Assembly (NCBI RefSeq): GCF_013167455.1
Contig: NZ_CP038328.1
Length of the DNA: 64,000 bases
From: Escherichia coli O157:H7
GTDB taxonomy: Bacteria; Pseudomonadota; Gammaproteobacteria; Enterobacterales; Enterobacteriaceae
Direction: 5' to 3' (one strand)
Shown here one piece after another: positions 55,329-55,969 of this stretch. A program made the position numbers and the translations under genes. The notes under the pieces are model-generated. The model saw only the letters and a program-made list of their open reading frames with translations, was not told the origin of the DNA and did not search any database. Positions within the stretch are counted from its first letter, which is position 1. Every line of letters starts with the position of its first letter.

Positions 55329-55969
55329 TTATTTACTGTTGTGTAACAAAGTTATAACACCATCCACCATCTGAGCCATTTTCTGATAATTCAATCTGTC
55401 TGCTGTATCACCGGGCAAGTGGTATTGTTTATTACGATAAAAAGCGGTGTCAGTAATCATTACGGCGAGAATATCGTGTTGCCAATAATTAAGGTGGTCA
55501 GAGAAATCAATACCGTGAATAAACCATGGGGCATTCATAGAATAAACAGATAAATCCCGGGATGATAACAATGCCGTTTTTACCTGACGAACGGCGTTGA
55601 TATCCTGTATTCTGCCGACCAGGCAATAAAGTCCCCCCGATCGGGATAAAGCCAGGACATTGCGGGTAAGGGTAATCCTGGCTACCAGGCGCAGAGTCGT
55701 AATAGCCAATTGGGGACGCCCTGCGCGGTAACTCTGGCACCGCTACTGACAAAGACCTTTTTTTATATACTCTACGGACCTATTCAGATTATCAATATTG
55801 TCGGCATTACGTGGATGCACAGTTTGTGTAAGATAACGAACTGTTTTTTCTAATTGCTCAGGAATTACGTGTCGGGGCGTTGGCGATAATGCAGTGACCC
55901 AGGGTTGGTAAAAAATAATCAGAGGGAGTGAAAACAGAAATAATATAACAAAAGGAAAATTTTTTTCAT
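55329..55969 (-). pseudogene. yfbL: Degenerate yfbL-like M28-family peptidase gene (frameshifted, internally shortened)
   Basis: Signal-peptide start MKKIFLLLYYFCFHSL at 55969 hits a stop after 16 codons; the sequence continues in another frame (IIFYQPWVTALSPTPRHV..), then a 126-aa C-terminal frame with M28-like SDH...YH..DT motif. Confidence 0.7.

Follow-up and report, generated by a model that had tools for sequence, protein, structure and literature searches.

The yfbL gene of Escherichia coli O157:H7 is, judged from its sequence, very probably a non-functional pseudogene, in which the catalytic core of the encoded peptidase is deleted and four small indels shift the reading frame. It is an ordinary, already annotated pseudogene, common to over one third of the complete E. 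coli genomes, and by itself carries little weight, as another degraded accessory gene of O157:H7 that the NCBI pipeline has flagged. In RefSeq, the locus of O157:H7 strain Z1615 is annotated as pseudo ('hypothetical protein; frameshifted'), genomes elsewhere that share this short allele carry the labels 'zinc-binding metallopeptidase family protein; frameshifted' or 'M28 family peptidase; frameshifted', and PGAP marks a frameshifted pseudogene in every short-allele genome inspected. In the searched set of papers mentioning yfbL, we found no description of the O157 yfbL pseudogene. We infer that the decay of this relic has been neutral.

Identity of the locus and its reading frames

In the region of the relic and its flanks, the window (the whole 64-kb stretch of O157:H7 DNA analysed here) matches E. 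coli O157:H7 chromosomes at 100% identity, among them those of strains Z1615 and 2017C-4109. Its minus strand carries, in order, elaD, the yfbL relic and yfbM, with nuoN converging on the plus strand, and the same elaD - relic - yfbM - nuoN order is found in Z1615. Intact yfbL (972 bp, 323 aa, compared with 641 bp for the relic) fills the same slot in strains U1 (elaD-yfbL-yfbM context) and HS (K-12-like yfbK-yfbL-yfbM context), and these two genes served as the reference alleles. A blastn comparison of HS yfbL with the window returned two matches, one per deletion flank (E = 1.8e-172 and 2.5e-107, far above chance similarity), with 94.8% identity over 384 bp and 92.4% over 263 bp, while U1 yfbL differed from the relic by 36 substitutions in 640 aligned nucleotides. 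The ancestral start (ATG, 55969..55967) and stop (TAA, 55331..55329) are both retained. On both counts, nucleotide identity (92-95%) and position upstream of yfbM near elaD, the minus-strand stretch from 55969 to 55329 is the yfbL ortholog, which bears out the first-pass annotation of a yfbL-like M28 peptidase; the intact ortholog matches Pfam Peptidase_M28.

Nucleotide alignment to intact yfbL resolved five indels. The alignment gaps were converted to window coordinates by script (Table 1). These five disabling differences from intact orthologs of the same species sum to -331 bp, which is exactly the step from 972 to 641 bp. The span of about 640 bp had been considered too short for a peptidase of this family and attributed to an internal deletion, and the shortfall is indeed mostly one 326-bp deletion.

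Table 1. Coordinates of the yfbL relic, its lesions and the neighbouring features in the window
Feature	Position	Strand	Basis
elaD	57581..56358	-	NCBIfam ElaD/SseL deubiquitinase, 423 bits
yfbK, last 40 nt including TGA	56248..56287	+	comparison with HS yfbK
yfbK 5' remnant, ~116 bp	56110..56225	+	76% identity to HS yfbK nt 10-130, two small indels, start codon lost
yfbL pseudogene, whole, 641 bp	55329..55969	-	alignments to intact U1 and HS yfbL; blastn
ORF still on the original start, MKKIFLLLYYFCFHSL then TGA (55921..55919)	55919..55969	-	frame-0 translation
Lesion A, 4-bp deficit, codons 4-5	55958..55959	-	A7/T4 run boundary; placement ambiguous by a few bases
Lesion E, A7 where intact alleles have AAAAGA (G>A plus +1 A)	55758..55764	-	allele alignment
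Lesion B, junction of the 326-bp deletion, gene nt ~262-588, codons 88-196	55710..55712	-	allele alignment
Lesion C, -1 G, CCCGGC > CCCGC, frameshift	55662..55663	-	allele alignment
Lesion D, -1 G, GCCGTGG > GCCTGG, frameshift	55621..55622	-	allele alignment
C-terminal segment in one frame, YfbL residues ~227-323	55329..55621	-	BLASTP
yfbM	55226..54723	-	gene order
nuoN	53199..54656	+	gene order

Inactivation had been ascribed to a frameshift right after the signal peptide. An inactivating frameshift is present, but it lies inside the signal sequence: lesion A falls within the region coding for the hydrophobic N-terminal segment and shifts the frame by -1, and the TGA at codon 17 is its consequence. 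The short peptide described for the minus strand from 55969 is accordingly found as a 16-codon leader, and no other ORF remains on the original ATG. Residues of the mature protein continue in another frame, as had been supposed, with the second segment (FSLPLIIFYQPWVTALSPTPRH...EYIKK) sharing 81% identity with residues 6-72 of HS YfbL (E = 9e-39); the YfbL-like residues of this segment also read FSLPLIIFYQPWV...EYIKK, in a frame other than that of the ATG. Relative to the ATG, the indels place successive segments in frames 0, 2, 0, 1, 0 and 2, which explains the frame-hopping coding signal noticed in the first reading, and both of the ORFs singled out there are present. The 81-aa ORF (55507..55752) carries IGYYDSAPGSQDYPYP, and the 126-aa ORF (55329..55709, with a TTG start at 55709) begins with 24 residues of out-of-frame sequence and then matches the C-terminal 102 residues of YfbL at 86% identity (BLASTP, E = 3e-65). 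The M28-type SDH...YH..DT motif reported in the 126-aa frame was recovered as well, with SDH at 55502..55494 and YHLPGDT following in the same frame, the His294-equivalent codon being 55421..55419. Lesion E leads to a TAG at 55745..55743. Overall, no single frame runs uninterrupted through the locus, in which the TGA at codon 17 is followed by four further frame changes. Rescue by an alternative start was considered and rejected, as the frame of residues 6-72 holds no ATG, GTG or TTG until the GTG at 55820, which opens a 25-aa ORF only.

Loss of the M28 catalytic core and the residual open frames

YfbL is predicted to be a zinc metallopeptidase of family M28, and its N-terminus bears a hydrophobic segment, either a signal or an anchor. 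Intact HS YfbL matches Pfam PF04389 (Peptidase_M28) over residues 95-317 (88.5 bits, model positions 1-191 of 193), and NCBIfam models add nothing to this assignment, with only sub-threshold aminopeptidase models matching the intact protein. Of the frames left in the window, the longest aligns to no more than the final 49 positions of this Pfam model (143-191; 17.2 bits, E = 0.0044), and none of the three frame fragments had an NCBIfam match at E <= 0.01. By phmmer, intact YfbL aligns to the Vibrio proteolytica aminopeptidase 1AMP over the catalytic core (E ~ 1e-9). The active-site residues established for 1AMP in the M28 family are H97, D117, E151, E152, D179 and H256 (positions counted on the printed alignment), and these correspond by hand count on the phmmer alignment to H113, D133, E165, E166, E195 and H294 of YfbL. 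Five of these six (H113, D133, E165, E166 and E195) fall in the deleted codons 88-196, and H294 alone is kept; the 326-bp deletion thus takes the first His, the bridging Asp, the catalytic/ligand Glu-Glu pair and the fourth acidic ligand. Since five of the six active-site positions are gone, restoration of the frame could not give an active enzyme. Measured against a functional M28 member, the window copy is deficient in its full-length domain, its metal ligands and catalytic Glu, and its open frame. The first-pass annotation had held frameshifts and an internal deletion jointly responsible for the loss of the gene; both are present, and the refinement is that there are five indels and that the deletion alone would abolish peptidase activity, whatever the frameshifts.

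A truncated but functional product of the relic, such as one from the 126-aa ORF with its TTG start at 55709 or one of programmed frameshifting, is very improbable. The 126-aa ORF is open and retains its high identity to the YfbL C-terminus, promoter-like hexamers occur inside the relic, and the retained relic sequence diverges no more than intact alleles do from each other. However, a 126-aa product would be without five of the six active-site positions and without a signal peptide, it would begin with the 24 out-of-frame residues, and its Pfam match covers the end of the model only. PGAP calls no 126-aa gene in any genome inspected, and, unlike a conserved new ORF, the region is broken differently elsewhere (a 7-bp deletion in NCCP13983 and DL21; other lesion sets in O145 and B-3008). 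The combination of a deletion with four separate frame changes is, to our knowledge, unlike any known recoding signal. A promoter and terminator scan found 8 promoter-like sites, where 4.4 ± 2.2 were expected, a result that is not informative on expression; one promoter-like site (56004..55976) persists upstream of the relic, which may be transcribed from it. In 54600..56500, an Rfam search at E <= 1 gave chance-level matches only, far under the gathering scores, and no known RNA.

Distribution of the short allele and proposed order of its lesions

A search with intact yfbL matched 5,352 genomes, of which 3,293 covered at least 80% of the gene, and the remaining ~2,050 (about 38%) covered ~67% of it in two pieces, that is, with a large deletion; the short allele is also present in E. 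coli B REL606. The whole 641-bp relic is at least 99% identical in 310 records, and a 71-bp query over the O157-specific A7 lesion matched exactly in 298 complete genomes, with the 100% matches among those listed coming from O157-labelled or unlabelled strains. The first-pass annotation had allowed for sequencing or assembly errors in homopolymer tracts, in which case the true gene would be intact, and two of the five lesions do lie in or beside A/T runs (A7/T4 at ~55959, A7 at 55758..55764). The probability of such an origin is negligible: a 326-bp deletion is no homopolymer artefact, its junction is identical in about 2,050 genomes, the A7-bearing stretch recurs exactly in genomes from many laboratories and platforms, and the full relic recurs in the 310 near-identical records. 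The lesions are fixed in the lineage.

Eight short alleles from different backgrounds were aligned with the intact alleles of U1 and HS. Lesion A (with a further 2 bp missing in two alleles) and lesion B (with the same junction throughout) were found in all eight, lesion C in six (absent from B-3008 and TUM14664), lesion D in five (absent from O145 RM9872, B-3008 and TUM14664) and lesion E only in the O157 allele. Damage in other lineages included a 7-bp deletion near the 3' end, shared by NCCP13983 and DL21, and a -1 C in O145, and homopolymer lengths varied among the short alleles (A6/A7/A8 after the ATG; T5/T6). The polarity from intact to deleted is evident from the lost core of a conserved domain and from the broken frames. 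As both occur in eight of eight short alleles, the 326-bp deletion is, on this distribution, as old as the signal-peptide lesion. Because they are in every short allele, lesions A and B would have come first (their relative order is not resolvable), to be followed by C at ~55663, D at ~55622 and last E. The distribution of alleles suggests this order under the assumption of few recombination events, yet O145 shows recombination here: the short allele of O145 RM9872 (L006:1461-2170) combines an O157-like 5' half with an HS-type, intact-like 3' half without lesion D, a mosaic that on its two halves is a product of recombination between alleles within the pseudogene. Homopolymer drift and inter-allele recombination would have gone on in the dead gene. 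Nei-Gojobori dN/dS over 192 codons was 0.57-0.75 for the window against intact alleles and 0.32 for intact against intact, which is consistent with relaxed constraint on the relic, from a small number of substitutions (~20-28 per comparison).

The deletion junction reads CCCC/AATTGG in O157 and CCCC/GATTGG in the seven other short alleles, the difference being an A in place of G at 55711, the first base past the junction. A microhomology-mediated deletion was considered and not adopted, as the 4-bp ATTG repeat is apparent in O157 alone. This apparent repeat probably arose by a later G>A at 55711, and the junction itself would be without microhomology; a deletion junction read from a single allele can therefore mislead. 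The nested lesions (326-bp deletion, -1, -1 and the +1 A of the O157 allele) provide lineage markers for the elaD-nuoN interval and expose recombination, as in O145.

The elaD-nuoN interval, phage N4 and related sequences

From elaD to nuoN the chromosome is a mosaic of genes present in some genomes and absent from others. Of yfbK (a vWA-domain lipoprotein of 575 aa in HS), the window keeps two remnants (Table 1), with ~1.56 kb of the interior lost. U1 has the same yfbK relic beside intact yfbL, so the losses of yfbK and yfbL are independent. K-12 and HS have yfbN, yfbO and yfbP between yfbM and nuoN; none of these three genes left a blastn trace in the 64-kb window, where the yfbM-nuoN intergenic region is 54657-54722. 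Among complete genomes, yfbO was found in 994 of 5,426, full-length yfbK in 2,514 and full-length yfbL in 3,293. The state of elaD also varies: it is intact in the window (407 aa), truncated and frameshifted beside IS1 in HS (L003:356-1332), and interrupted by an internal stop in TUM14664 and B-3008 (L008 and L009). Between the elaD stop (56358) and the yfbK 3' remnant lies a perfect 12-bp inverted repeat, CGACCAGTCAGC-AAATAT-GCTGACTGGTCG (~56304-56339, minus strand), which may be a shared or bidirectional terminator; lacking a T-run, it escaped the terminator scan.

According to a 2025 bioRxiv preprint (10.1101/2025.09.29.679331), K-12 BW25113 with a Keio deletion of either yfbL or yfbO is resistant to phage N4 specifically, and ASKA plasmids complement the deletions; in that work yfbL is described only as 'predicted to encode a peptidase'. 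The O157:H7 window holds a functional copy of neither gene, yfbO being without a trace there and rare among complete genomes, and the short yfbL allele is shared by O157:H7 and E. coli B REL606. The spread of the relic to ~38% of genomes could then be adaptive, with YfbL acting, like YfbO, as a host factor for N4-like phages. We consider this unlikely, and slightly less likely still that the deletion allele, along with the lack of yfbO, has been kept frequent (~38%, including O157:H7 and B strains) through protection from such phages; if true, the relic would mark a natural phage-resistance polymorphism, not neutral decay. The N4 preprint is not peer-reviewed and offers no mechanism, and its evidence comes from K-12 deletion mutants. 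The elaD-nuoN mosaic is as expected of dispensable accessory DNA, and one ancient deletion spread by descent and recombination requires no selection. In wild strains, moreover, the O-antigen already limits the access of N4-type phages to their receptor. Neutral decay is our preferred reading. Anyone extending K-12 yfbL phenotypes, such as the reported N4 resistance, to other strains should bear in mind that natural yfbL nulls, O157:H7 and the B/REL606 lineage among them, make up more than one third of E. coli genomes.

In comparison with intact yfbL (HS WP_000719999.1 and U1 WP_001551393.1, each a 323-aa M28 family metallopeptidase), the relic shares the slot, the start and the stop, but with its five indels and the loss of codons 88-196 it cannot encode the enzyme. 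The RefSeq short alleles of Z1615 (ILQ43_RS08280), NCCP 13983 (AC1X94_RS17490) and O145 RM9872 (I3Y_RS15595) share its deletion junction and its signal-peptide lesion, to which O157 adds, relative to the other short alleles, the +1 A / G>A at 55758..55764 and the G>A at the junction. The third enzyme in the comparison, 1AMP (the Vibrio/Aeromonas proteolytica leucyl aminopeptidase, MEROPS M28, with a co-catalytic di-zinc site), is a distant homolog only, and YfbL is known as a predicted peptidase. The H, D, EE and last H of 1AMP are conserved in intact YfbL, which has Glu (E195) where 1AMP has Asp179, whereas the window copy keeps only the position equivalent to His256.
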